Virus record (IMG/VR): IMGVR_UViG_3300026076_000001
Reading direction: 5' to 3' (one strand)
Length of the DNA: 64,000 bases
Origin: a virus
Positions within the stretch are counted from its first letter, which is position 1. The number at the start of each line of letters is the position of its first letter. Positions 5,131-42,035 of this stretch are shown in pieces. The notes below the pieces were generated by a model. The model was not told where the DNA came from. It did not search any database and saw only the letters and a program-made list of their open reading frames with translations. The position numbers were made by a program, and so were the translations under genes.

Positions 5131-7283
5131 ATATCCACAAATGATGAGAGTATCTTTTTGTTGACACTCTTATTACCAAGAGATCTCTTGAAAGCAGCTT
5201 TGATCTTTGCTTTAGTTGCACCTTCATCAACCTCAAACTCAGTGTTGAGACCTAGGTTCTTGTTAGGCATTAGATACAACTCATCATATCCAAGAGACTT
5301 CTTAACAACTAAGGACTTGTCTCTTCTAAGTCTTGCTTTAATTTCATCTCTGGAAATTCCACGCTCCATCCAGTCGCATAGATTAGATGCATTACGTATC
5401 CAGTAAGAAACATCCCTACCCTCGATAAGTCTGAAACTAACAAAGTTGGATTCTGGAAACGTTTCTTTAAGATCTTGGATATAGATGCCAAGATTTGACA
5501 TATAATTACCTGAAAAACGATCAAAAACACGCCCCGTACGATTATTGCGAAGAGCAGCACGATGCTCCACAGTTCTCGTAAGGAGTTCTTCATCCCTGTA
5601 ATGGTCTTGCTCAGTCGTGTAGACTCCTGCGTGGGATTCTCCATCACTCAAAATAATACAGTTTAATTTTTCTACTCCATACTTCTTGCGGAAGTAAGGT
5701 ATTACAGTATGTAGAGATACTATTGCATCTGACAGTGGTGTACCACCTAAGTACAATCCAAGTGGATGTCCTAGTGCACGTGAACCTTCAAATACTTCTC
5801 CACCGCTATAGCTAGAATAGTATGCACCCAAACGGAACATATACTTTAACTGTTGCTCAAATTCATTACCACTAAGATCGGTGGTAAGCACATTAACAAG
5901 ATTAAAACAATCTCCAAAGGAGTATTTGTAAGCTGTACTTCTGTCTGGTCTGTGGTTTTCATTAGCATCTCTAGCCCATTCAGTTGTGAATAGATACGCA
6001 TTGAATGGTATCTGTGCCTTCTTACAGAACCAAGCTATATTGATGAGTTGCTTCACCATATTGAAGCATACATCACTTATAGATCCAGACCAGTCAACTA
6101 GTGCAATTAACCCGTGGTTCTTACCATCAGGGAGAACTGTTACCCGCTTAAACAAGTCCTCATTGTACTTGTAAGTATGTAGTAACCCAGTGTTCAAAAT
6201 ACCAGTTTTACTAGTAGATGCACGTGCATATGCTGCTGCTGATTTCTTACACTCAAACTCTTTAACAAGATAATTTACTTCTCTTGCAGCTTCTTTACGG
6301 TAAGAAAGGAATGCTTCATCAGCAAAGTGAACTGGATCATATCCAAAAGACTTATAGAGTGTAGAATAATGCTCTTCGCATCTCTCCATAAAATTTTTGT
6401 TAGGAACAACGATGTCATCATACTTACCTCTTTTGATCTCAATGATATCGATCTCTTCATAAGTATTTGATGATGCTAGATCTCTTAACTTACCTGCTAA
6501 GGATTCAACAGTAGATAGATCTTCTGGTTTGAGTTCTTGCTCACTACCATCATCAAATCCACCACCACCTTCTTGCTCAATTCCATCTTCACCTTCACCT
6601 TCACCAGTTTGAGACTTAAACTTATCGTCACCTTCTTCTGACTCACCCTCGGATTCTTCACCCCAGTCAGATGATGGTTGCTGACTCTCAGGAGTACCGC
6701 TTGTATTGCCCTCAGGTGCTTCTTGCTGCTGTTGAGGATGTTCTACATCCTTTCTATAGTTCCAGAGGACTCTCGCTGCTTCTACAGCATCTTCAAAGGT
6801 TTCAACTCTATCAATCTGTTCTACAATTGCTTGCTCAACTTCATTGAAAGGGATCTCAACATAGTTTCCAATCTTGAAATGAAGATTGACTCTATCTGCC
6901 ATAGTGAACTTAGTAAGATCTTGCTCCCATACACTGAAGAAATCTTGCTGATTGAGTTGCTTATAACCTTCGTAGAATGTCTTACGTAAACCAGGAAACT
7001 TACGCTTCATCAACTTCTCTATACGTACATCCTCTGTGATATTCAAGTAACCCTGAGGTACACCCAGAGTATGCATATCAACATTAGGAGTGAATAAAGC
7101 GTGTCCTACTTCGTGTCCTACAAGAAGGTCATAGATTGTATTGGTTAGACCCTTCCAGATAGGAAGTGTCAAAATTCTTTTGTTTACATCGAATGATGCA
7201 GTGTCAACAACTTTGTGTTGAACGATAAGGTTTTCAGTAGCTAGAAGTTTAGCAAGGTTACCTTTAACTTCGTAGTGGGACAT
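5121..7283 (-). CDS. zinc metallopeptidase-like/vWA domain protein (CobT-like partner of CobS)
   Basis: HEVGH plus NxxEDxRIE near the N-terminus; acidic linker; vWA MIDAS DWSGS, GGTPL, ILSDGES. Likely start MSHYEVKG at 7283, although the ORF is open to 7454. Confidence 0.8.
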   Translation of the reverse strand: MSHYEVKGNLAKLLATENLIVQHKVVDTASFDVNKRILTLPIWKGLTNTIYDLLVGHEVGHALFTPNVDMHTLGVPQGYLNITEDVRIEKLMKRKFPGLRKTFYEGYKQLNQQDFFSVWEQDLTKFTMADRVNLHFKIGNYVEIPFNEVEQAIVEQIDRVETFEDAVEAARVLWNYRKDVEHPQQQQEAPEGNTSGTPESQQPSSDWGEESEGESEEGDDKFKSQTGEGEGEDGIEQEGGGGFDDGSEQELKPEDLSTVESLAGKLRDLASSNTYEEIDIIEIKRGKYDDIVVPNKNFMERCEEHYSTLYKSFGYDPVHFADEAFLSYRKEAAREVNYLVKEFECKKSAAAYARASTSKTGILNTGLLHTYKYNEDLFKRVTVLPDGKNHGLIALVDWSGSISDVCFNMVKQLINIAWFCKKAQIPFNAYLFTTEWARDANENHRPDRSTAYKYSFGDCFNLVNVLTTDLSGNEFEQQLKYMFRLGAYYSSYSGGEVFEGSRALGHPLGLYLGGTPLSDAIVSLHTVIPYFRKKYGVEKLNCIILSDGESHAGVYTTEQDHYRDEELLTRTVEHRAALRNNRTGRVFDRFSGNYMSNLGIYIQDLKETFPESNFVSFRLIEGRDVSYWIRNASNLCDWMERGISRDEIKARLRRDKSLVVKKSLGYDELYLMPNKNLGLNTEFEVDEGATKAKIKAAFKRSLGNKSVNKKILSSFVDMVS

Positions 7284-7307
7284 AGGGTGTTCGTTTCTTA
7301 TGTCCTT

Positions 7308-7366
7308 ATTATACAAAGAAACCCTCCGCTTGGGAGGGTTCAGTAGACACTTTATCAACTGTCTAC
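7308..7366 (-). promoter_or_regulatory. promoter of vWA/peptidase gene: palindrome + hairpin + TATAAT
   Basis: TATAAT 7308-7313; hairpin AACCCTCC-5nt-GGAGGGTT 7320-7340; inverted repeat GTAGACACTT-N4-AACTGTCTAC 7343-7366. Confidence 0.65.
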
Positions 7367-7554
7367 GTCGTGCTCTCGCTTGACGCAGTGCCTGTGGTTT
7401 TAGTTTTCTTTTGGCTTCCTTCTTTGAGTGATGCTGCCAGTTTGGAACTTTCATTTAATTTCTCCAGAGCGGCTAGTACTTCGGGAGTCTCTTCCCAACT
7501 CCACGTTTCTTCTCGACCTTTCTTATCTATCTTGGTGAATGTTTTAACAGTCAT
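7363..7554 (-). CDS. hypothetical protein (63 aa)
   Basis: ORF track; coupled to the upstream ORF; 3' end overlaps the basic MKVPNW segment. Confidence 0.55.
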   Translation of the reverse strand: MTVKTFTKIDKKGREETWSWEETPEVLAALEKLNESSKLAASLKEGSQKKTKTTGTASSESTT

Positions 7555-7751
7555 ACTGTAAGATCCTCCGACTTGATTGAAAATAGAATGTCATCTAGTT
7601 CCTGTATGTGTTCTATATTAAACACCATCTCGCTAACGTGCTTGATGAGGAATGGACTTTCTGATCTGGCAGCAAAGGCAAGTGCTTCTCGCAAATGCTT
7701 CTGTGCTTCTGCTAGTTCGGTTTTAACTTGTTCTGAAATTTGTGTTTGCAT
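7551..7751 (-). CDS. hypothetical protein (66 aa)
   Basis: ORF track; directly downstream of gp46. Confidence 0.65.
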   Translation of the reverse strand: MQTQISEQVKTELAEAQKHLREALAFAARSESPFLIKHVSEMVFNIEHIQELDDILFSIKSEDLTV

Positions 7752-23278: not shown

Positions 23279-23469
23279 TTTTCAGCAGCATATAAGGCAA
23301 ACGTAGAAGTAGTTATAACAGTCATCATATTTGCTATATGTTGTTTGACATCTGAATCACAAGTTTTACCAGGTATAAAGCAACCAAATATTGTTGCTGC
23401 TACTATTGCTAATTGAAAAAATATAACAAACCTTATAAGGTCGATGACTTGCTTCTTAGTATCCATCAA
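23275..23469 (-). CDS. small membrane protein (64 aa, 2 hydrophobic segments)
   Basis: LIRFVIFFQLAIVAATIFGCF and IANMMTVITTSTFALYA. Confidence 0.6.
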   Translation of the reverse strand: MMDTKKQVIDLIRFVIFFQLAIVAATIFGCFIPGKTCDSDVKQHIANMMTVITTSTFALYAAEK

Positions 23470-25130
23470 ATGTAAGGCATCATATAATCTACTTCGTATT
23501 GTTTAGTACCATATTCATCTAGCTGCCATACATTACCATCCTCATCTACTATAGTCTCTTCTTCTAATCCTGTCTCTATGAATCCGAACGGAGCCATATC
23601 TTGTTCCATTTCATTCTTACGTTCATCATAGATCTTCTTACGAACGTCAAGGTCTGTTAATTCCCTGAAGAAATCCTGAAGTACCATCCAAGAGAATATG
23701 ACGTGACACATTACTAGGTCATCGTGATACCCTTCATCTGCTTCAAATGAATCTTTCTTCTGAACAAACGTAGTTAGTTCTGCAATAGTGTCATAGTCAT
23801 TGATAAGTAACTTATCCTCTTCTATGAGTGCCTTAAGGTTAGAGCATCCTTGCTTCTTAACCGTCTTAGACATCTTGACACCTAACTGTGCTTTACCACC
23901 AGAGAAACCAGATCCCATAACCTGACCAGCTCTACCACGCATAGCACACATCAATAGATTAGGATACTCCAGATCAAACTGAAGAATAGAAGCAACCTGA
24001 TCTCCTATATCATTCACCTCTATCATTATATTTGCATTATTATAATTCCTTGCGGTGTCATAGATTACATTAGGGAATAGTATAGGTTTAATTTCATTGT
24101 TTCTATACTTACCTACTAATCTATACGGGAACTCTGTGATATCAAATACACAGAAGGCAGAGTAATCCTGTGCGGTTCCTCTAGCTACGTCAACAGTAAT
24201 AACATACTCGTGTTTATCTTTTCTATTCTCGTATAGGTCTAATCCTTTATTCCTTACTATAGGAGTATCAAATGATAGTGCTTTTAACTTAGCAGGGTTG
24301 ATAAGAGTATCCTGTGATCCTAAGAATTCACACTCAAACTCCTGAGTGAACTGTCTTTGAGAAGTATTACGTATAGTCTGTTCCTTCCATTTAGCATCTC
24401 TACCAGGAACCTGAGACCAATGTACTTCGTGATTTACATATTCGTTTCTACCTTTGAGGGAGTCCTCCCACATCTTGTAGAACATATTCATCCCGTTAGG
24501 GGTGGATATGATAATTACTTTTGATTTCTTACCTGAACTAATCGTCGGATAAACGGAACTAAAAAACTGATCGCATATATGGTTGGGGATAAATGCAAAC
24601 TCATCAAGGAAGACAATATTGAAAGACATACCACGGACAGCACTGGCACTAGTAGAAGCTGCGATAAGTTTTGATCCATTTTCTAACTCCAGTGATCCTC
24701 TGTTCCAAGCAACGATACCTTGCTGCATCCAACGTGGTAAATTCTCATACGATAATTGGAGACGGCTAAGCATTTCCCTAGCCGTTGCAGCTTTGTTTGC
24801 AAGAATTGCTACGTTTACATTAGCATTAAACAGTGCATAATGCAACAGGTAGGTCGTAACGATAGTAGACTTACCAGACTGACGTGGTAGTTTTGCTATA
24901 TTAAATCTGTTCGTATGGAACTTATGCATCATCTCCTTCTGGAAATCATACATCTTAAAGTCCATCAAACCTTCGTCTATATTAACAATCTTCAAATACC
25001 TTTCAGTGAAGTAGACAGGATTGTCTCTACACTTAATATACTCAGCAACTTGTTTCTTTGTGAAACTCTGCTGAGTATTTGCTTTTTTTAAATTGGGGTT
25101 ACCAAGATATATGTCAGTAGCTGCTCCCAT
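23466..25130 (-). CDS. gp17: terminase large subunit
   Basis: YLGNPNLK, PRQSGKS, RGMSFNIVFLDEFAF, ISTPNG, DVARG, DDLVM; no intron or intein apparent. Confidence 0.98.
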   Translation of the reverse strand: MGAATDIYLGNPNLKKANTQQSFTKKQVAEYIKCRDNPVYFTERYLKIVNIDEGLMDFKMYDFQKEMMHKFHTNRFNIAKLPRQSGKSTIVTTYLLHYALFNANVNVAILANKAATAREMLSRLQLSYENLPRWMQQGIVAWNRGSLELENGSKLIAASTSASAVRGMSFNIVFLDEFAFIPNHICDQFFSSVYPTISSGKKSKVIIISTPNGMNMFYKMWEDSLKGRNEYVNHEVHWSQVPGRDAKWKEQTIRNTSQRQFTQEFECEFLGSQDTLINPAKLKALSFDTPIVRNKGLDLYENRKDKHEYVITVDVARGTAQDYSAFCVFDITEFPYRLVGKYRNNEIKPILFPNVIYDTARNYNNANIMIEVNDIGDQVASILQFDLEYPNLLMCAMRGRAGQVMGSGFSGGKAQLGVKMSKTVKKQGCSNLKALIEEDKLLINDYDTIAELTTFVQKKDSFEADEGYHDDLVMCHVIFSWMVLQDFFRELTDLDVRKKIYDERKNEMEQDMAPFGFIETGLEEETIVDEDGNVWQLDEYGTKQYEVDYMMPYI

Positions 25131-25474
25131 TATCTCCTCACCACAACATCACCTTCACCATCATCTTCTTCTTCTAGTTCTTTAATCCTATCCTTAAGGT
25201 CTTTGTTAAGTGGATCTCCTAGGTTGTGAAGTTCTGGTGAGTCTAGTTTAAATCTATCAGCAATTTCTTCTTCTGGTCTTGGTGGTTGTAGTTCTCTAAA
25301 GTTGACAACCAATAGTTCATCACCTTCTTTCACATCTGCCATCTCTGGGTGTGGAAGAGGTTTTTTATTTCTATCGTACTCATTTTGTTCCATAGTTTTC
25401 CAACCAACAGACATTAAACGAAATGCTTGAATCAATAAGTAGAGTGAGAATCCATAAAATAAAATAGGAATCAT
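25130..25474 (-). CDS. DUF2973-like cyanobacterial membrane protein
   Basis: N-terminal TM followed by HPEM...G.ELLVVNF. Confidence 0.65.
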   Translation of the reverse strand: MIPILFYGFSLYLLIQAFRLMSVGWKTMEQNEYDRNKKPLPHPEMADVKEGDELLVVNFRELQPPRPEEEIADRFKLDSPELHNLGDPLNKDLKDRIKELEEEDDGEGDVVVRR

Positions 25475-25659
25475 TCGCTCAGTACTTCTGGTTCCTCATC
25501 AAGCATACCTTTGACAAAGGGTGAGTCACCCTTAACTCTCATCATCTCTTGTATCTCTCGTTCTTTCTTTTTAAATCTTTCTTCCTCAAGAATCTCTTGA
25601 GCCATACCCCACGAATTCGTGGCGTTATCCTTTATGTCGATGTTCCTTATGATGTGCAT
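25471..25659 (-). CDS. hypothetical protein (62 aa)
   Basis: ORF track. Confidence 0.55.
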   Translation of the reverse strand: MHIIRNIDIKDNATNSWGMAQEILEEERFKKKEREIQEMMRVKGDSPFVKGMLDEEPEVLSE

Positions 25660-25733
25660 TTTGTTTCTCCTGGAGAGGCCATTCTATTATAAGTCTAAAA
25701 GTTTTGTAACCTTTTGAGTCTAGAGTCTCTTGT

Positions 25734-26198
25734 TCAAGACTCGACCAGAGTCCCAAACGATCTCCTAATCTCGCGTAACTCTTCAAAGTTCTTTTGTTTA
25801 GTGCCACCGTCATACTCCCAAGCATATCCTTCTGTGATCATCTGTTCATTCAGAGAAATCGTGGTGTCATCAATATATAACCAACCAAGAAGACGACCAT
25901 ACTTACCAGTCCCACCAACAAGCTCAGTGCGAACAGAAAGTTCACCGTCACCATTGATAGTGTCTTCAAGTTTCTTCTTAAGCCAATTAGTCGCATCGAT
26001 ACCCAACGCTTTCTCTTCAAGATCACGTGTGCGTTTTTCTGGCGTGTCAACTCCAGCTACCCTTACTCGCTCCTTTTTATATAGGTCGAAACCAAGGTCT
26101 ATAGTGACATCTATAGTGTCACCATCAAGTACTTTGTCGATTGAGGTCACTCGGAAGTTGTAGCAGCTCTTCCGACTCGGTGGTGTCATCTTGCCCAT
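25734..26198 (-). CDS. thermonuclease (staphylococcal nuclease-like)
   Basis: VLDGDTIDV, RVRVAGVDTPE, GKYGRLLG, LNEQMITEGYAW; likely start MGKMTPP at 26198 (track start 26216). Confidence 0.9.
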   Translation of the reverse strand: MGKMTPPSRKSCYNFRVTSIDKVLDGDTIDVTIDLGFDLYKKERVRVAGVDTPEKRTRDLEEKALGIDATNWLKKKLEDTINGDGELSVRTELVGGTGKYGRLLGWLYIDDTTISLNEQMITEGYAWEYDGGTKQKNFEELREIRRSFGTLVES

Positions 26199-26301
26199 TG
26201 GGGTACCAATCATCATACTTAAGTATGTATACGAGCACCACAGTAACAGCGATCAATAAAATAGCTATCATTATATTAACTGACCAAATGACTTCAGACA
26301 T
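26125..26301 (-). CDS. small membrane protein
   Basis: MSEVIWSVNIMIAILLIAVTVVLVYILKYDDWYPN...; one TM; 3' end overlaps the nuclease gene. Confidence 0.55.
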   Translation of the reverse strand: MSEVIWSVNIMIAILLIAVTVVLVYILKYDDWYPNGQDDTTESEELLQLPSDLNRQST

Positions 26302-26407
26302 ATGCTTCAGCAGCAAGTCTAAAAGCTAATCCTAGAGAAACCCCCATTACTGTGAGACGACTCATCCACCACATTATCTCGTGCTTATTCTTATTAATGC
26401 GTTTCAT
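26294..26407 (-). CDS. small membrane protein (37 aa)
   Basis: Manual translation MKRINKNKHEIMWWMSRLTVMGVSLGLAFRLAAEAYV. Confidence 0.5.
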   Translation of the reverse strand: MKRINKNKHEIMWWMSRLTVMGVSLGLAFRLAAEAYV

Positions 26408-26571
26408 AGCTCCATCCCCATAGTGCAGTAGTCAATAAAATGAGGATGATCCTTTAGATAGGATACATCCTCTTTACTGTGTTCTATTGCTTCGTATGCG
26501 TCTTTTGCATATTCACAAATTTCATAGTGTTCCTGGTTATTGTCGTGATAACCAACAGTGTAGTGCGACAT
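26404..26571 (-). CDS. small acidic His/Cys/Tyr-rich protein (55 aa)
   Basis: Manual translation MSHYTVGYHDNNQEHYEICEYAKDAYEAIEHSKEDVSYLKDHPHFIDYCTMGMEL; ATGA coupling to the next ORF. Confidence 0.65.
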   Translation of the reverse strand: MSHYTVGYHDNNQEHYEICEYAKDAYEAIEHSKEDVSYLKDHPHFIDYCTMGMEL

Positions 26572-26599
26572 TGGGATTACGATTATTTCGAGTCCACTA

Positions 26600-26776
26600 C
26601 TAGTTATAAGTGCTTATACCCCTATCTCGATGGGTGTGTGCTATCCCTAACTCGTGCATTTTAGCGTGCTCTGCAATGGGATCTTTCACAGTCTTACCGC
26701 CTGGTCCAAAGGTAAACCAAAGACCCACTCCTACTAGAGTTAGAAGGATTCCAATAATGACAAATACTATTATCAT
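26600..26776 (-). CDS. psbN: PsbN-like protein (58 aa)
   Basis: Manual translation MIIVFVIIGILLTLVGVGLWFTFGPGGKTVKDPIAEHAKMHELGIAHTHRDRGISTYN; TM + G-x-G-L-W-x-x-F-G-P + DP-x-x-EH resembles PsbN. Confidence 0.65.
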   Translation of the reverse strand: MIIVFVIIGILLTLVGVGLWFTFGPGGKTVKDPIAEHAKMHELGIAHTHRDRGISTYN

Positions 26777-26928
26777 AATAGTATAGCCCCTATGATGAAA
26801 CCTTTAGCAAATGAGATGCATAGCATCTTATAGTTGGATAGTTTGAACTTGCGTTGAAATTTTTCAGCAAGATCTCTATCCCATCCGACTACCTTGTCGA
26901 ATGCATTTTTAATATTTAAGTTCCACAT
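26773..26928 (-). CDS. small protein with C-terminal hydrophobic segment (51 aa)
   Basis: Manual translation MWNLNIKNAFDKVVGWDRDLAEKFQRKFKLSNYKMLCISFAKGFIIGAILL; TAATG and ATGA coupling. Confidence 0.65.
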   Translation of the reverse strand: MWNLNIKNAFDKVVGWDRDLAEKFQRKFKLSNYKMLCISFAKGFIIGAILL

Positions 26929-27332
26929 TAGTAACCTAGTTTGTCTAGAAAGAATATAGCAGTATAAGGGTGACCATTGCTAGATGTCAAGACCTCTATA
27001 GGACCATCAGCAGTGTCTTCTAGAACACCACTACCAGCAAGGTTCATCTCTCCACATCCACCAAGGATAATTGAAGTGGTACCACCACGCCCTACCTTAA
27101 CGTGCTTACCTCCATCTTGAGGCATTGAGTAAATAATTTTTGCGATATCCATTCTGGTAGGAACCTGTGTACGGGTTGCTACACCCTTACTACCAGCACC
27201 ACCAAATTCAGGGACACCTGATTCGACCACTACGTCATATGATAAATCTGACGGATCGATCGTAGTAGCATCTTCGGACGTAATCTTCACGACCGCTTGC
27301 TTTTGATTGTTTTTAAGAACGACTTTTGACAT
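26928..27332 (-). CDS. hypothetical beta-rich protein (134 aa), possibly virion-associated
   Basis: ORF track; late-promoter-like CTAAATA at 27349-27355. Confidence 0.7.
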   Translation of the reverse strand: MSKVVLKNNQKQAVVKITSEDATTIDPSDLSYDVVVESGVPEFGGAGSKGVATRTQVPTRMDIAKIIYSMPQDGGKHVKVGRGGTTSIILGGCGEMNLAGSGVLEDTADGPIEVLTSSNGHPYTAIFFLDKLGY

Positions 27333-27334
27333 AG

Positions 27335-27496
27335 CTAGTCTTTATTTGTATTTAGATTTGACGACCATTTTTTGTGGGAGTATGCACCACCCTTCACTCC
27401 AAATGATCTCTTCGTATCATTTGATACCTTGTCTGAGATCGGTGTCATCTGACCCGATTCTTCGAGATCCTTTAGTATCGCTTTGAAGGGACGCAT
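27335..27496 (-). CDS. small hypothetical protein (53 aa)
   Basis: Manual translation MRPFKAILKDLEESGQMTPISDKVSNDTKRSFGVKGGAYSHKKWSSNLNTNKD; late promoter CATAAATA 27522-27529. Confidence 0.45.
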   Translation of the reverse strand: MRPFKAILKDLEESGQMTPISDKVSNDTKRSFGVKGGAYSHKKWSSNLNTNKD

Positions 27497-27521
27497 TTCT
27501 GAAAATAATCCGCACTATAGT

Positions 27522-27538
27522 TATTTATGCTATAAATA
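27522..27538. promoter_or_regulatory. back-to-back divergent late promoters
   Basis: CATAAATA on minus (27522-29) and TATAAATA on plus (27531-38), 1 bp apart. Confidence 0.8.
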
Positions 27539-27562
27539 AATGAAGGGTATGGAACAAAAACT

Positions 27563-28054
27563 GTGAAAAAGATTTTACTAATATTAGGAATATTTGCACT
27601 TGGTGGACAAGCTGCACGTGCAGATATTACTTCACGTATGACTTCTAGCGTACAGCTAACAGTCAATGCGGCTGCAACTCAGATGCAGAGAGTGGGAAAC
27701 TCTTATAGCATCTCTGGTAATAACGTGGACACAACTGATGGAACGACTGCCAACACAGTGAGTGCTGGTTCTATTAGTAGCGGTGTCTATGGTCCTGGAA
27801 CTATTTCTGTTGTTCAAGACGATCCAGGCGAGGCGTTTAGCTTCTCAACTTCGTTTATTCAAGGTGACGCTATACATACACAAGGGCCAGATGTAGGTGA
27901 TGTATCACCTTACTCCAACCAATTATCGACTGCTGCTGGATCCGCAGGATCCCTTGCAGGAACTGTAACTTCGCAAGGTGCCTTGACGGTAACAGCTGGT
28001 GGAGCTGGAACTACAGCTACTGGACAGTTTGTTACAGAGCTCCAAATCGACTAG
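27563..28054 (+). CDS. exported beta-rich protein A
   Basis: Signal peptide MKKILLILGIFALGGQAARA; S/T/G-rich alternating beta-strands; GEAFSFSTSF motif. Confidence 0.8.
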   Translation: MKKILLILGIFALGGQAARADITSRMTSSVQLTVNAAATQMQRVGNSYSISGNNVDTTDGTTANTVSAGSISSGVYGPGTISVVQDDPGEAFSFSTSFIQGDAIHTQGPDVGDVSPYSNQLSTAAGSAGSLAGTVTSQGALTVTAGGAGTTATGQFVTELQID

Positions 28055-28075
28055 TGAAGTGGAGGTTTTGGCAAA

Positions 28076-28558
28076 ATGAAGAAGAGGATTGCCCTATATG
28101 TGACTGCTGTGGTAAGTGCAAGTGTCGTTGCTGCACCTGCCCTGGCGGTCCCAGTGGTCCCCAACTTCCAGCAGGGCTCGATGACGAGTCATACCGAGAC
28201 TGAAAGCACAGTCACGGAGACAATAAATTCAATTGATTATCGTACAGGATGGGAATACTCAGTGACAGGGGTAGGCGTGGACAACAATGGCGAAGCCCTC
28301 AACCCCCCAGTGAACACATCAACAGTGACACTCTCGCCAACAGTAGGCACGGGAGAAGCAGCCGTAACGGGAAGTGTAACTTCTTCGTTCGATGCTATAG
28401 ACTTCTCCGCACAAAACAACTTCACAATCCACGAACCTGGAGCAGCGTTTCAATTTACCCAGACATATCAAGGACCAGGGATGACCAACCAGACAATAAT
28501 ACAAAGATTAACCACCGTAACGTCAGTCACAGACACAACTTCAACGTTTACTCAATAG
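28076..28558 (+). CDS. exported beta-rich protein B (possible distant paralogue of A)
   Basis: Signal peptide ending PALA; long Thr-rich terminal strands; GAAFQFTQTY motif. Confidence 0.8.
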   Translation: MKKRIALYVTAVVSASVVAAPALAVPVVPNFQQGSMTSHTETESTVTETINSIDYRTGWEYSVTGVGVDNNGEALNPPVNTSTVTLSPTVGTGEAAVTGSVTSSFDAIDFSAQNNFTIHEPGAAFQFTQTYQGPGMTNQTIIQRLTTVTSVTDTTSTFTQ

Positions 28559-29622
28559 GTAATGTCAGTGGAAGATTATCAAGAACCGCAGCCGCTTTAT
28601 GCGTCACTAGTGCTAGTTTGTTTTCTACTAGTTCTGCTCTCGCTGAAGGTGTTGGGGGCGTAAGTGCTACTGCCAATCCAATAGCCAATAGTTCGGGCTC
28701 AGTAACCAACCAGGCAATACAGGTTTTACAAGGTCCATACGTCACTAACACCTACGGTGGTGGGGTATCTTGTCAAGGTACGACTCTCAATATGACACCG
28801 TATTTACAGTTTGCAGATTCAAGGAAAGATCCTTGGGAAGATTTTTATAACGAACCGCAATATAACCTAACAGATCTAGAAGGAAGAACAGTACAACAAG
28901 TCGTTACTGTTAAGAACTACCCTTGGGAAACTTGGTATGATGACCGTACTAAGGCAGACGGTACTAGATGGTTTGAAGATGGAGATGATATACAAATAGA
29001 AATAGATGTACCAGCTGGTGATGGTGTACCTGATGTAGTAGGTAGTGGTGGTACTATGACCCCTACTTGGTATAAACCAATTAGAACAGATATGAGAGCG
29101 AATCAGAGTTTCAACGTAGGTATCTCTGCTACGCTTTCTATACCATTGAACAGAGGTATGCAACGTAAGTGTTCTGAAGCTGCAACAGCACAAATAGCAT
29201 CTGTTCAACAGTTGACTGCTAACAAGCGTTTAGACTTTGAATTAGCTAGACTCAAGAATTGTGGCGAACTCAAAAAAGCTGGTATAATGTTCCACCCTGC
29301 ATCTCCATACCACGCAGTATGTGCAGACGTTATGGTATCATCTCCTGGTAATAGAGTACTTCCACACGAGCACGAAATACCACAACCTACTTGGACGCAA
29401 CCTTCTTCTGACCAAACTTCAGAGGAAGCATCCCCTTCTTCTCTCGATACTGATTCGTCTTCTTCTCAGATAAAGTCGGACGGTACGGAGTCTTCCCAAG
29501 AATCTTCTGAACCTTCGCAATCGTCTTCTTTATCACAGGCTTCACAACTTTCAATAACAGATCCGCAATGGGTTTTGCAAGTAGGGCAGACGTTGTTGCC
29601 ACCGCAGCAATCGAAGCAGTAG
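28555..29622 (+). CDS. exported protein C with beta-hairpin and Cys-containing coiled coil; start codon uncertain
   Basis: Signal-like stretch ending SALA-EG, then VSCQGTTLNMTPY, NQSFNVGISATLSIPL, helix RKCSEAA...RLKNCGEL. The track start at 28249 overlaps gene B by 310 bp; no ATG/GTG precedes the signal peptide. Confidence 0.7.
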   Translation: MGNVSGRLSRTAAALCVTSASLFSTSSALAEGVGGVSATANPIANSSGSVTNQAIQVLQGPYVTNTYGGGVSCQGTTLNMTPYLQFADSRKDPWEDFYNEPQYNLTDLEGRTVQQVVTVKNYPWETWYDDRTKADGTRWFEDGDDIQIEIDVPAGDGVPDVVGSGGTMTPTWYKPIRTDMRANQSFNVGISATLSIPLNRGMQRKCSEAATAQIASVQQLTANKRLDFELARLKNCGELKKAGIMFHPASPYHAVCADVMVSSPGNRVLPHEHEIPQPTWTQPSSDQTSEEASPSSLDTDSSSSQIKSDGTESSQESSEPSQSSSLSQASQLSITDPQWVLQVGQTLLPPQQSKQ

Positions 29623-30289
29623 TTGTTACTGTAGGTATAGATGGTAGAAATTGCTCTATTGTTGGAACAGGTTCCCATATGGTTTCACATATCTTACCAT
29701 CAGGTGTCAGTTTATATTCTTTAACTTTCTCTGTACCCTCCTGATTCAGGTCTCCAATGCGTCTTGCATTGATTGGAGGACATTCTACCTCTTCTTCTCC
29801 ACCTCCAGCTGGAGGAGGATCTGGAGTCTCTGGGACGGGTGCATCAGGTGGATCCCCTGTATCTACTCCTCCTGCATCTGGTTGCTCTTGAGTAATAGTT
29901 TGCCAAGATAGTTCTCTATAATCATAGTCAGGTGGTTCATAATAAGGAGCACCAGCATCACACAATACTACATTTCCTTTAGGGTCATCATCGACCAGCA
30001 TCTTATTAATATTTTTTTCTTTAGCATTCTCCTTGTGTACCTTTACGCAACCTGGCATATTAACTATAGGAGTACCAGCTAGGACAGTTACAGGAACTGT
30101 TACTGGTATAGCTTGTGGTGGTTCTATTAACCACACACGAGCATCAGCAATACCTCTAACACCTATACGATTAATTCCTGTCTCTTCTGGTTTAAGTGTC
30201 CCAATAAAACGAATTCCAGTACCGTTAACTTGAATGTTAGGGATACTGGAATTGCTGCTATTAGGGATGAATGGAATACTATTTTCCAC
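29387..30289 (-). CDS. membrane-anchored Pro-rich, Cys-containing protein (300 aa)
   Basis: Four Cys, Pro/acidic linker, C-terminal hydrophobic segment and basic tail. Confidence 0.75.
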   Translation of the reverse strand: MENSIPFIPNSSNSSIPNIQVNGTGIRFIGTLKPEETGINRIGVRGIADARVWLIEPPQAIPVTVPVTVLAGTPIVNMPGCVKVHKENAKEKNINKMLVDDDPKGNVVLCDAGAPYYEPPDYDYRELSWQTITQEQPDAGGVDTGDPPDAPVPETPDPPPAGGGEEEVECPPINARRIGDLNQEGTEKVKEYKLTPDGKICETIWEPVPTIEQFLPSIPTVTTTASIAAVATTSALLAKPIADLLLKVVKPVIKKTIAKVQKILGKTPYRPTLSEKKTNQYREKKGMLPLKFGQKKVASK

Positions 30290-30545
30290 TTTGAGGTATC
30301 ACCTGTTTATAATTTTGAGTTGGTGGTTTTATTCCCTTCACAGGACCACTAGACTTTGGCCAAGCATTAACCAATTGTAAATATACTTCTTCTCTAACTA
30401 CCTGTCTGATTGCTTCTATTTTAGCATCTTCACGTTTCTGAGGACCACCAGTTTGTTGGTCGATGAGATGATTCCCACCGACCGTAGCACCAGTACCTAT
30501 AACTGCAGCTGCTGTTACTCCTGTAGTTACTTTTTGAAAGTCCAT
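30279..30545 (-). CDS. small protein with N-terminal hydrophobic/Gly segment (88 aa)
   Basis: VTTGVTAAAVIGTGATVGG followed by a helical segment. Confidence 0.7.
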   Translation of the reverse strand: MDFQKVTTGVTAAAVIGTGATVGGNHLIDQQTGGPQKREDAKIEAIRQVVREEVYLQLVNAWPKSSGPVKGIKPPTQNYKQVIPQSGK

Positions 30546-30850
30546 TACCTTGGACCAATATCTCTAGTAGCAGGCCCCATTACTGGTGGAATAGATGCTT
30601 GATCTGGTGAGGGAGAAGGAGCAAGATCAGGAGCACCTAAGTTTCCAAAGTCAGGTTCTGCCATCTTAGGTACCATACCAGCACCACCTAGTGCACCACC
30701 ACCAACACCACCTAGAACGTTATCTAGTGCCTTCTCTTTAATGTCTTCTATGATGGCATCCTTTTGAGAATAAAGATAAAAACCACCACCAACAACGGCA
30801 CCAGATATAACGAAAGACGTAATAGCAAGTACATTAATAATTTTTTGCAT
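30545..30850 (-). CDS. N-terminally anchored membrane protein (101 aa)
   Basis: IINVLAITSFVISGAVVGGGFYLY TM, amphipathic helix, Pro-rich tail; late promoter CTAAATA 30873-30879. Confidence 0.75.
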   Translation of the reverse strand: MQKIINVLAITSFVISGAVVGGGFYLYSQKDAIIEDIKEKALDNVLGGVGGGALGGAGMVPKMAEPDFGNLGAPDLAPSPSPDQASIPPVMGPATRDIGPR

Positions 30851-30879
30851 AATAAATTTTAATACTCTGATCTATTTAG

Positions 30880-31500
30880 CTACTCTTCACAAGCGTCTGC
30901 AAAATCAGCAGCCATATTACCACCGAGTTCAGCACCTTGGTTTCCACCAAACATTGCTACCCAACCAGCAGCCAACCATCCTACGAATGGTATGCCTGAT
31001 ACAGCAGGTGCAGCAGCTGCTCCAACGCTAGTGCCTACAAGTCTTCCTGTTTGTTCACCACCACCGACTGCCTTTATACAGGCTTCGGTTTTAGCAGTTA
31101 CATTTCCATCTGCATCTGACTTACCTCCTGTAACAGCTAATGCAGCAGGGTCAATCCAAGCACTCCGTGTGGATACAGGTCCACCGTGATGGAACGCACC
31201 GTCCATTGTGTACTGTGAAACTACTTTCTTATTCTCATTAGCGAGTCCAAGGAACCCACCTTTCTCTTTAATTAATTCCTCTCTCCACATCACCTTAGGA
31301 TCGTTAGCACGATATGCTACTTTATATCCTTCCTCGTTTGCTTCTATATTATAAGCAGAATAAGGTCCGCTAGGTAAATTAAAATCAGGTAACTTACTAT
31401 TATTCTTAGTAGCAAGCATACCAATCATACCTATATGACTAATGCCTAGGAGACCGCCAGCTCCCAAAGCAAACCATTTTGTCCAGTTAATTTTTTCCAT
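30880..31500 (-). CDS. membrane protein with C-terminal glycine zipper (206 aa)
   Basis: N-terminal TM; VGTSVGAAAAPAVSGIPFVGWLAAGWVAMFGGNQGAELGG. Confidence 0.75.
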   Translation of the reverse strand: MEKINWTKWFALGAGGLLGISHIGMIGMLATKNNSKLPDFNLPSGPYSAYNIEANEEGYKVAYRANDPKVMWREELIKEKGGFLGLANENKKVVSQYTMDGAFHHGGPVSTRSAWIDPAALAVTGGKSDADGNVTAKTEACIKAVGGGEQTGRLVGTSVGAAAAPAVSGIPFVGWLAAGWVAMFGGNQGAELGGNMAADFADACEE

Positions 31501-31515
31501 AATAACCTCAAGTTG

Positions 31516-31932
31516 TTATAACGTATATTTTTTATCTGTGTCTTTAGGTGACTCAGCAATGATTTTTAATGGTGCTTGTTCTATAACAATAGTTTGTGTA
31601 GGACCGCCATTCTTTCCTACTCCATTAGGACCACCATTTCCATTCATTTTCATTGTACCGTCACCTTTCTTACTAGCTGTCTGAATTCCGAAGCTAGCTA
31701 AAACTCCAGTAAAAACTGAAGCTATAAAAGTTGGGTCAATTTTTTGTTGCGGAACTCCAGGAATTGCAACGTAATTTAAAGTCAATATACCCCCAGACCA
31801 CACTAGTACACCCAATCTCACGAAAGTGGAGATTATGGCAGCCTGTTCGTCTTCATCAGGTAGTATCTTGTCTTTTAGTTTCTGTAGTGGCCCTTTTTTC
31901 TCCACTAATTCTTCTTTAATTTCATCAGCCAT
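31516..31932 (-). CDS. two-TM membrane protein (138 aa)
   Basis: IISTFVRLGVLVWSGGILTLNYV and FIASVFTGVLASFGI with charged termini. Confidence 0.75.
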   Translation of the reverse strand: MADEIKEELVEKKGPLQKLKDKILPDEDEQAAIISTFVRLGVLVWSGGILTLNYVAIPGVPQQKIDPTFIASVFTGVLASFGIQTASKKGDGTMKMNGNGGPNGVGKNGGPTQTIVIEQAPLKIIAESPKDTDKKYTL

Positions 31933-32332
31933 CGGTAGTTTCCTCTACTTTTTTTAACATTTTTGCTAGTTCAGCAGTGCTACCAACAAACATAGTGTTG
32001 TTGACAGTAGACGGACCTTTTGATGGCCCTTCTTCTTTGACTTCTTTAGTCTCTTTCTGTAACTTCATCAACTTGTCAGTTGTATCCGCTACGTTCTTAA
32101 TCATCAAAGCTGCAACTTCATATGCTCTCGGATGATCCGATGATGCTGCAACATCAAGAATACCGTTAAGTGCTTCTTGACCTTTATCGATTAAATTATA
32201 TAGCTGACCACGTGTATATTCGTAGTCTTGAGTGACATCTTCTTTTACTTCACGTTTAGGTTTTGCAATAACGTCTACCGTCTCCTCAGGGAGATTTAAG
32301 ATGTCTTGCATATTATCATCTAGTTTACTCAT
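31925..32332 (-). CDS. gp16: terminase small subunit
   Basis: DYEYTRGQLYNLIDKGQEAL...HPRAYEVA...NNTMFVGSTAELAKML; follows gp15. Confidence 0.88.
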   Translation of the reverse strand: MSKLDDNMQDILNLPEETVDVIAKPKREVKEDVTQDYEYTRGQLYNLIDKGQEALNGILDVAASSDHPRAYEVAALMIKNVADTTDKLMKLQKETKEVKEEGPSKGPSTVNNTMFVGSTAELAKMLKKVEETTDG

Positions 32333-40535: not shown

Positions 40536-40582
40536 TGGTAGTCCCTTGGTTTATCTTGTGACAATTAAATAATAAAAAATCC

Positions 40583-40810
40583 TCAACCGCCTAAGGCAAT
40601 TGAGAGTGCAGCAATCTTGGATGTGATGCCCACACCACCGATTTTGAGGGTCTTGTTAGTACCTGTCAAGTTTAGGTCGCCACCAACGTCGATGTCTCCA
40701 ATAACGTTTCCAGTTGCGACATTTCTAAGGTTTCTTGATCCATCAAGTACTTCTGTGCCAGCCACGGACAAGCCGTTCTTGGCATTAAAATTGATATTTG
40801 ACGTTGCCAT
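40583..40810 (-). CDS. small fibre-like protein ending AALSIALGG
   Basis: ORF track; own late promoter TATAAATA 40858-40865. Confidence 0.7.
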   Translation of the reverse strand: MATSNINFNAKNGLSVAGTEVLDGSRNLRNVATGNVIGDIDVGGDLNLTGTNKTLKIGGVGITSKIAALSIALGG

Positions 40811-40868
40811 CGTGGTTCCCTGTCCCCCCGATAATCGGAATATAGGTTTTCTTCAGTTATTTATACAA

Positions 40869-42035
40869 TTAGACATTCATTGTCGTTCTTGTGAACTGAA
40901 TAAAGGTTCCTATCGTGGCAGTTGTACTTAATTCTAGATTGACACCATTAATTGCAGCACTAAATGTGGCTACTGCAACTCCTGGATTTGAATGTACATC
41001 TCCGTACATCACCACGAATGCATCAGTTCCATCGTGAGTTAGAATTACTTCACTAGTAGATACGTGTCCACCGTGTGAAGCATATACTGTATATTTGGCA
41101 CCACGTACATTTGCAACGATCAATGAATCGAATACTTCTGTAGCAGATGTAGTAGTCATTGTACCAGCACTAATACCAGTTTTATCTGTGATATTAATAT
41201 GGTCTGTATTATTTGTTGTACCTATCTTGACAACTGAAGAACAAGAAATATCTCCTGTAACAGTAAGAGTTAATGGAATATGAGTATCGTAGTTAGACCA
41301 AATAGATGATCCTCTTATCTCCAATGCTGGTGTTGCTTGGCTACTGATATGGAAACTAATATTTTGGTTAGTTGTAGTAATCTCAGTGAAATTACCATTC
41401 TCTTTGAAAGCAAGAGTATTATTGAATAGTGGATGTGTATTGTTTAATTGTATAGATCCCAGAAGAGTTGCGTTATCTGGTTTAATAGTAAGGAACTGAT
41501 CTCCACCTTGGATCCTAGCCTTATTAGCAGTAACACCAAATGCAACTTCTTTAGCGTTATCTAACTGGATATCACCAGCAGATATGTGTAAACGTGAAGT
41601 TGGGTTTGCAGTTCCCAATCCTACACGGTGATTTATTTTATCAACTACAAGTGTTGTACTGTCTAGGTTAACATCACCATTAACCTCAAGTCCACCCATA
41701 GTAAATGTAGCACCTTGATTTAATTTGATAGCACTAACAGTACCATCAGAAGGTTCACCTACATCTATAGTATCTCCAATAACCAATCCAAAGAAATCGA
41801 TTCCTGGGTTTGGAGGATCAGAGAATGTTAATTGATCGTTATTAATTTGATAAGCAACGTTTGCTTCTTGCAGAACACCACCAAGTGATATAAACAACTG
41901 CAAAGGAGCACCAGGATATATTACCTGACCACCTACTCTCAGGTTAAATGTGGTATTAACTCCATTAAACTGAGAAGCTACGTCATCCAGTTTACGGATG
42001 TTACCTATTTTTGGTGTAACGCCTAAATACGCCAT
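40869..42035 (-). CDS. tail fibre-like structural protein (388 aa)
   Basis: N-terminal MAYLG/QFNG module, central beta-solenoid-like segment, C-terminal HDGTD module. Confidence 0.7.
   Translation of the reverse strand: MAYLGVTPKIGNIRKLDDVASQFNGVNTTFNLRVGGQVIYPGAPLQLFISLGGVLQEANVAYQINNDQLTFSDPPNPGIDFFGLVIGDTIDVGEPSDGTVSAIKLNQGATFTMGGLEVNGDVNLDSTTLVVDKINHRVGLGTANPTSRLHISAGDIQLDNAKEVAFGVTANKARIQGGDQFLTIKPDNATLLGSIQLNNTHPLFNNTLAFKENGNFTEITTTNQNISFHISSQATPALEIRGSSIWSNYDTHIPLTLTVTGDISCSSVVKIGTTNNTDHINITDKTGISAGTMTTTSATEVFDSLIVANVRGAKYTVYASHGGHVSTSEVILTHDGTDAFVVMYGDVHSNPGVAVATFSAAINGVNLELSTTATIGTFIQFTRTTMNV

Follow-up and report, generated by a model that had tools for sequence, protein, structure and literature searches.

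Prochlorococcus and Synechococcus are the most abundant phototrophs of the ocean, and their lysis by phages moves a large share of marine carbon. To our knowledge, most of the phages infecting these hosts are without a recognised holin, endolysin or spanin. In this study, we analysed a 64-kb stretch of viral DNA (IMG/VR record IMGVR_UViG_3300026076_000001, hereafter the window), which is part of a T4-like cyanomyovirus (Kyanoviridae) whose closest isolates at the DNA level are P-SSM2 and P-SSM7 (69–73% identity). It carries an operon of three genes, here called A, B and C, and the closest described relatives of this operon are the cyanophage core gene clusters T4-GC 237, 236 and 235, which correspond to gp167, gp166 and gp165 of Syn9 and to PHM2_197, PHM2_196 and PHM2_195 of P-HM2. 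These relatives are orthologues with the same gene order, strand inversion and late-type promoter position and show no structural difference from the present locus; A is 57–77% identical to them, B about 80% or more and the domain of C 42–77%. No study of the overlap of C, or of the families of A, B and C, was found in the published literature. We conclude from the pattern of sequence evolution that C starts inside B, and we suggest, with a probability of about 40%, that the three products take part in the breach of the host envelope at lysis.

Overprinting is known from several lysis genes, including E within D of phiX174, L across the coat and replicase genes of MS2 and Rz1 within Rz of lambda. 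The B/C pair resembles them in that a second frame is kept open and would be translated, and in that the overprinted sequence is poorly conserved and basic. It differs from them in the extent of the overprinting, which covers just the N-terminal leader (and the C-terminal tail) of an exported protein that is larger and conserved; Rz1 of lambda is embedded in the +1 frame, whereas the B/C overlap is in the -1 frame and partial. Gene C (28249..29622, plus strand, 457 aa; T4-GC 235, Gp165 family) begins at an ATG within gene B (28076..28558, plus strand, 160 aa, ATG start), and the two genes share 310 nt on the same strand (28249..28558), which encode an Arg-rich leader of C. The product of C matched phrog_848 with an E-value of 7.7e-101, has no Pfam family and is 66% identical to the P-SSM2 protein named 'gp165'; the Gp165 family comprises 365 clusters at 50% identity. 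The only canonical start codon in the frame of C after the stop of B is a TTG inside the hydrophobic stretch of C, and the open reading frame (ORF) opens 103 codons upstream, in B.

The relatives of this locus were compared by a script at 80 loci, which gave 63 distinct B/C junctions, and C was in the -1 frame of B in all of them. Across the last 100 codons of B, this frame had no stop at 62 of the 63 loci, where synonymous resampling expects 4.6 stops (the probability of zero is about 0.005 per locus). The +1 frame over the same region of B was used as a control and showed 11 stops against 9.5 expected, and the first 50 codons of B contained 1–6 stops in the -1 frame. The avoidance is also visible in the choice of single codons. 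Among codons with a synonymous third-position T followed by a codon starting with AA, AG or GA, the stop-making T was used at none of 964 positions within the overlap, as against 206 of 568 upstream of the internal ATG, and in other contexts within the overlap T was used at 24.7%.

The internal ATG is formed by a Gly-Trp pair of B (GGA TGG), and in every case the -1 frame becomes open a few codons upstream of it. The Gly codon is GGA in 62 of 66 sequences and the preceding codon is ACA in 64 of 65, which makes them the two most codon-constrained sites in B; at the other conserved Gly sites of B, the codon choice varies freely. A second Trp of B gives the start of C in ACG-2014b, S-TIM5, S-H68, S-RIM2, P-HM2 and S-CAM1, with an overlap of 166–178 nt, and in the podovirus P-GSP1 the start is a GTG lying 112 nt into B. 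C has more than 5,900 relatives, and the long form has been called by gene callers thousands of times. Because the -1 frame is fixed and free of stops, the codons forming the ATG are constrained, the same design is found in other lineages and no slippery heptamer is conserved, we conclude that C starts at 28249 inside B and that its product is 457 aa, including the leader.

Another way to make C would be as a B-C fusion through a -1 frameshift in B, or by reinitiation at the ATA or GTA codon that lies over the stop of B. The constant -1 frame, open over the 3' two thirds of B, would fit with it, and the ATA or GTA sits exactly at the position of the ATG in the coupled ATGA form described below. 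However, no heptamer of the X XXY YYZ type is kept among the relatives, the best column being found in 13 of 66 sequences and upstream of the ATG, and canonical -1 frameshifting thus has no support. The open frame always begins just before the ATG, whose two codons are the most constrained ones of B, and if reinitiation occurred at the stop of B, stops would be free to arise in about 100 codons upstream. Reinitiation would also favour TGA stops, which give ATG or GTG in the frame of C, yet these were found in only 4 of 56 junctions; a canonical start is rare at this site because the overlapping codon is mostly ATA (35 junctions) or GTA (17), and the other 4 carry GTG. On these data, together with the codon-fixed ATG upstream, we rejected a start of C at the ATA or GTA, and we regard the fusion and reinitiation routes as improbable as a whole.

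The origin of the start of C inside B can be traced in relatives. In the podovirus-like contig L088, the last codons of B are CAA TGA, and the ATG of the shared ATGA is the start of C, which opens with MKKRVAFALLALCHSPVHA (beginning MKKR). The ATGA coupling of L088 is the ancestral-type form, and the fixed -1 frame of C is the footprint of this coupling. In the T4-like lineages, the ATGA has changed to ATAG, ATAA or GTAA. The G to A change in ATGA keeps the stop of B as TAA or TAG and destroys the ATG of C, and initiation has shifted upstream. The leader produced in this way is about 102 aa long, contains 16% Arg, has a net charge of +5 to +18 (about +11 here), and is poorly conserved. It may be a tolerated by-product of the start relocation, since relatives do without it; alternatively, it may serve dosage or timing.

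A signal-peptide-like segment is found behind this leader, at residues ~102–132 of C (28552..28644, plus strand), with an n-region of two Arg, an Ala/Ser/Thr-rich core and ALA followed by E. It is homologous to the true N-terminal signal peptides of relatives that start with MKK, and other cluster representatives also have a canonical signal peptide at their start. The hydrophobic segment of C is a bona fide signal peptide by descent, because relatives carry the homologous segment at their N-terminus. The first-pass annotation of the window had given Sec-type signal peptides to all three proteins. This was right for A and B, whose signals have an n-region, a hydrophobic core and an AxA site; for C it does not hold as an N-terminal feature, as no ATG, GTG or TTG lies ahead of the hydrophobic stretch and the segment sits behind the 102-aa leader.

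The B/C pair is a clean and strongly supported case of start-codon relocation that created an overprinted leader of 100 codons, and if C starts inside B, a synonymous change in B is predicted to abolish C. The overlap also accounts for the inconsistent treatment of these genes in public records, in which B is dropped or C is shortened. Several GenBank records annotate the long C, some of them without B in consequence. B is missing from the records of P-SSM7, S-CAM1 and ACG-2014b, and C is cut to begin at or after the mature N-terminus in those of P-SSM2 and S-TIM5.

Gene A (27563..28054, plus strand) has a GTG start and encodes 163 aa; it corresponds to T4-GC 237, also called 'OMP1', and matched phrog_564 with an E-value of 2e-65. 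Gene B, which corresponds to T4-GC 236 and the Gp166 family, matched phrog_650 (E 9e-54) and the Pfam family DUF6322 (PF19847) with 126.3 bits and an E-value of 7.7e-37, where the curated cut-off is 30.6 bits. A reached only 12.4 bits with the DUF6322 model in the Pfam copy used, and under Pfam 38.1 its closest ESM Atlas clusters are 100% DUF6322. The feature neighbours of both proteins in the ESM Atlas are clusters named DUF6322, 'OMP1' or 'Gp166', and they come from viruses only. Profile-profile alignment of A and B with hhalign gave a probability of 95% and an E-value of 2.6e-8 over the core with the motif G-x-A-F-x-F. This motif had been noted as common to A and B on first reading and reflects true homology; as judged from these profiles, A and B are paralogues.

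The signal peptides were assigned by eye and from relatives, in which a variable signal precedes a conserved mature N-terminus. Both A and B begin with a K/R n-region, a hydrophobic core and an AxA site, as is typical of a Sec signal peptide. That of A ends with ARA and is followed by DITS, and that of B ends with ALA and is followed by VPVVPNF; in the relatives the signal peptide itself varies, and these residues just past the AxA site are kept. The mature A and B contain no Cys, and no lipobox Cys, the mark of an o-spanin, stands at the end of either signal peptide (ARA is followed by D, and ALA by V). Neither protein ends in the aromatic residue that is typical of outer-membrane barrels. 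A profile search of Protein Data Bank (PDB) sequences gave no match for B and only noise for A, and nothing meaningful was obtained from the NCBIfam search. Over the signal-peptide region of B, a 49-aa Cys-rich ORF is found in the -1 frame (28054–28203, plus strand), with a similar ORF in ACG-2014b. It is probably non-coding, with stops in the relatives and normal usage of T ahead of the ATG.

The conserved exported domain of C (28645..29400, plus strand) was modelled with AlphaFold2 using 62 diverse cluster representatives, and the model had a mean pLDDT of 78.8 and a pTM of 0.45; the full-length protein with 61 close relatives reached a pLDDT of only 37.9. The domain is predicted to have long strands at residues ~185–204 and ~274–293 of the full-length protein, followed by Pro-Leu, a 42-residue helix (302–343) and a short helix. 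Its four Cys (175, 308, 338 and 358) are 95–100% conserved, which fits with an oxidising compartment. The first ~30 mature residues of C are invariant among the T4-like cyanophages, yet unstructured in the model, and the first 45 mature residues, like B, show very strong conservation among phages that differ in their hosts and tail fibres. These features describe C as an exported, disulfide-type alpha/beta protein with a fold without solved relative, and the low pTM is compatible with an oligomer, as far as the model can be read. The motif PHEHEIP after the domain (29365–29385, residues ~373–379) is invariant in close relatives and may be a metal-binding site or nothing; we dropped the idea of a metallopeptidase site at its HxH (PHEHEI), which is less than 80% conserved in the diverse family alignment.

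Foldseek of the C domain against the PDB gave nothing below an E-value of 0.25, the best matches being unrelated proteins, and VIA-align against 48,161 chains aligned only a single long helix with Z of 5 or less. The profile search of PDB sequences with C gave no match. The structural matches in BFVD were restricted to the Gp165 family, including those of the podoviruses P-SSP10, P-SSP3, S-RIP1 and S-TIP37. The hairpin followed by a long helix with paired Cys, which had been proposed for C by the first-pass annotation, was reproduced by the model, but its comparison with TolC is left unsupported by the structural searches, which gave generic single helices only. C and TolC share a beta-hairpin, Pro-Leu and then a long helix, and the likeness is limited to this one strand-helix junction; the C model differs in that its ~250 residues contain a single 42-residue helix with a few long strands. 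As regards the Foldseek comparison with TolC, CsgG, FlgH and aerolysin that had been advised, no TolC row was shown in either search, CsgG and FlgH were not among the matches shown, and the aerolysin and lysenin pores appeared only at E-values above 3.

The C-terminal tail of C (29387..29622, plus strand) is rich in Ser, Glu, Pro and Gln and is antisense, over 236 nt, to the 3' end of a convergent gene on the minus strand (29387..30289; T4-GC 234, phrog_570). This gene encodes a 300-aa protein with a C-terminal transmembrane (TM) helix and a basic tail, it is syntenic with the A-B-C cassette, and it is the part encoding the basic C-terminal tail that lies opposite the tail of C. Among 56 relatives, the median length of the antisense overlap is 215 nt (17–427), about five times the run expected from the stop density, and resampling would place about 4.8 stops in it; since the first stop sets the limit of the overlap, this test carries a bias.

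Concerning transcription, the minus strand carries nearly all genes of the window, and A, B and C are the only substantial plus-strand ORFs unshadowed by longer minus-strand ORFs, as had been noticed on first reading. The late promoter box of the operon, TATAAATA (27531..27538, plus strand), is an exact T4-type match and lies 24 nt upstream of the GTG of gene A. It adjoins, back to back as previously described, a divergent late-type box read from the sequence, CATAAATA (27522..27529, minus strand), which is a candidate promoter for a 53-aa ORF at 27335–27496. Each of the 7 copies of TATAAATA in the window stands immediately before a gene start, and their raw number is not enriched (7 vs 4.8 expected by chance). 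Of 57 distinct relatives, most have a late-type box (TATAAATA, CTAAATA or CTATATA) 17–40 nt 5' of A. The expression classes of P-HM2 place the homologue of A as late and that of B as late/mid (PMC5082946, supplement). The description of a late-promoter-driven operon of exported proteins is thus supported, the P-HM2 homologue of A being transcribed late. Elsewhere in the window, a gap of ~330 nt between two minus-strand structural genes (40536–40868) also holds a TATAAATA box (40858–40865, minus strand). In the same gap region, a TTG-started plus-strand ORF of 104 aa (40617–40931) is probably spurious.

The families of A, B and C are confined to viruses and widely shared among the marine cyanophages, almost every Prochlorococcus or Synechococcus phage carrying the cassette. 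The C domain was found in 415 phage records, which are essentially all Kyanoviridae together with S-TIM5, the siphovirus-like MED4-184 and the podovirus P-GSP1. Its matches in 'cellular' assemblies are on phage-sized or short, phage-like contigs in metagenome-assembled and single-amplified genomes. The A-B-C unit is retained in S-TIM5, S-H68, MED4-184 and L088, and P-GSP1 has B-C only, so the co-occurrence of the three genes that was expected across genomes is seen in these phages and in the Kyanoviridae.

Small membrane proteins travel with the cassette. Homologues of T4-GC 234 are found beside it in P-SSM2, ACG-2014b, S-TIM5, P-HM2 and L088, and by eye in P-GSP1. A further gene in the window (31516..31932, minus strand) encodes a DUF6450 protein of 138 aa with two predicted TM helices (Pfam PF20048, E 1.9e-34). 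In MED4-184, P-GSP1 and L088, its homologue immediately precedes A or B. A search of five cyanophage genomes and 14 control cell genomes found one copy in every phage genome and none in the cells. The two hydrophobic helices and charged ends of its product give it a holin-like topology, and it adjoins the cassette. A small membrane protein annotated as 'plasmid stability' also accompanies the cassette. In the window, the cassette block lies between the genes of the small (31925–32332) and large (23466–25130) terminase subunits, and within the region 23466–32332 the two terminase genes are thus separated by an insert of ~6.8 kb with genes for small membrane proteins, exported proteins and nucleases. 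In P-GSP1, the cassette is between a tail-fibre-like gene and the small terminase gene. In T7, the holin gene 17.5 and the spanin genes 18.5/18.7 are at the corresponding terminase-side positions.

The two-component spanins, namely Rz/Rz1 of lambda, gp18.5/gp18.7 of T7 and LysB/LysC of P2, can be compared with the locus in their way of working, and this comparison is a lead only. Like A, B and C, they are late and envelope-directed, are encoded by an overlapping gene pair on the same strand, include a helix-rich periplasmic partner with conserved Cys and, in T7-like genomes, lie beside the terminase genes. Unlike them, A, B and C have no sequence or fold similarity to spanins, and A and B are without the lipobox Cys. 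An i-spanin has a stable N-terminal TM anchor and a periplasmic coiled-coil; C has a long predicted periplasmic helix with Cys, but its short Ala/Ser/Thr-rich core and AxA site look cleavable. The resemblance to spanins, as far as such an analogy goes, is one of context and topology only.

We presume that the Sec system would translocate A, B and C late in infection, and the leader of C would remain on the cytoplasmic side, probably being removed by signal peptidase. The three proteins would then act in the periplasm or the outer envelope with the neighbouring membrane proteins, such as the two-TM DUF6450 protein, T4-GC 234 and others, as a part of an egress machinery that breaches the outer envelope layers and stands in for spanins or other outer-membrane disruptors, these phages having no recognisable lysis genes. 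This participation in envelope breach at lysis is the candidate role to which the probability of about 40% refers. The spread of the family over unrelated cyanophage groups, its synteny with small membrane proteins and its position relative to that of the T7 lysis genes count in favour of this role. In addition, a search of five cyanophage genomes with five Pfam families found no match to Phage_lysozyme, Amidase_2 or Peptidase_M15_4, and the only signals were sub-threshold ones of M23 and SLT inside one 1020-aa ORF of S-TIM5. The T4 r genes are absent from cyanomyoviruses (PMC2984593), and T4-GC 234–237 have no virion-proteomics flag (Sullivan 2010, PMC3037559 File S1).

Several observations weigh against this role. 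No peptidoglycan hydrolase domain, lipobox or stable TM anchor was found in A, B and C, and it would thus be wrong to name them spanins or endolysins. The homologue of C in P-HM2 was classed as mid, not late (PMC5082946, supplement), and the DUF6450 gene of S-TIM5 is far from the cassette. The holin reading of the DUF6450 protein comes from topology judged by eye, the endolysin search spanned just the five Pfam families, and the translation of the leader is deduced from codon and frame conservation.

More tentatively, A-B-C together with the DUF6450 protein and T4-GC 234 might be the missing lysis/egress system of the marine cyanophages, non-homologous to the holin-endolysin-spanin system of enteric phages, and the overprinting of C on B might itself be functional. 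It could set a fixed, low C:B ratio by ribosome competition, or it could yield a membrane-bound Arg-rich leader peptide of ~130 aa, freed by signal peptidase, that times or triggers lysis. We hold this wider proposal to be possible and rather doubtful. Since the set is late, exported and virus-only, and is common to unrelated virion types (T4-like, S-TIM5, T7-like and siphovirus-like), its genes are concrete knock-out targets for the lysis question, and the homologues in T7-like cyanophages are within reach of published cyanophage genetics.

Superinfection exclusion or receptor masking is an alternative role, in which the exported proteins would coat or block outer-membrane receptors late in infection and so spare incoming phages, or the progeny from being lost on debris. 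Llp of phage T5 and Lom of lambda are named examples of such masking or exclusion. The late, exported nature of A, B and C, without virion-proteome flags, would suit this role, as would the lack of T4 r/imm-type exclusion genes in cyanomyoviruses. A recent preprint argues for a role of this kind for phage-encoded outer-membrane proteins generally (10.64898/2026.10.24.761521). On the other hand, receptor-specific blockers would be expected to vary, whereas the conservation of B and of the first 45 mature residues of C noted above persists despite differing hosts and tail fibres. The module is also retained in minimal genomes of 38–45 kb beside the holin-like gene. We consider exclusion unlikely.

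The first-pass annotation had favoured a beta-barrel, tube or fibre in the host envelope. In a model of this kind, A and B would assemble into a fibre, an amyloid or a beta-tube and C would be the outer-membrane conduit, serving secretion, solute exchange or a surface structure. It would parallel curli (CsgA/CsgB with CsgG) and Fap (FapB/FapC with FapF), which likewise have a paralogous pair of small, Sec-exported, Ser/Thr/Gln/Gly-rich beta proteins beside a further exported protein, as A and B are beside C. The strands of ~20 residues and the 42-residue helix predicted for C, with a pTM that is compatible with an oligomer, would agree with such a conduit, and the aerolysin and lysenin pores were among the very weak Foldseek rows. 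Against this, Pfam gave neither curlin nor Fap repeats for A, B and C at E-values up to 1, none of TolC, CsgG, FlgH or FapF was among the structural matches shown, and no accessory chaperone or protease genes were recognised. The absence of the C-terminal aromatic residue from A and B also speaks against outer-membrane barrels, as does the lack of a match to Phage_OMP (PF24653) in A, B and C. A fibre or channel is in our opinion quite unlikely.

That A, B and C are virion or assembly components, for which the late promoter and the position of the cassette in the structural/packaging region between gp16 and gp17 could be cited, is very improbable, as the first-pass annotation had already held for exported proteins: signal peptides are present on A, B and the relatives of C, T4-GC 234–237 carry no proteomics flag, and the same genes are shared by cyanophages of the myo-, podo- and siphovirus types, whose virions are built in unrelated ways. 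Participation in envelope breach at lysis remains the role that we favour.

Two further genes were observed in the surroundings of the cassette. The Phage_OMP family (PF24653, IPR056410, 'cyanophage outer membrane protein like beta barrel') resembles A and B as a small beta protein with a signal peptide that can adjoin the cassette (10.64898/2026.10.24.761521), and it is a separate family. In L088, a gene at 7283–7648 (minus strand), ~1.6 kb from the cassette, encodes such a signal-peptide protein of 121 aa, on which the model that left A, B and C without a match scored an E-value of 6e-33. An SNase-like endonuclease gene (Pfam SNase, phrog_452) is near the cassette both in the window (25734–26216, minus strand) and in L088 (6432–6965, minus strand), and it may be a part of the same mobile block as the cassette.

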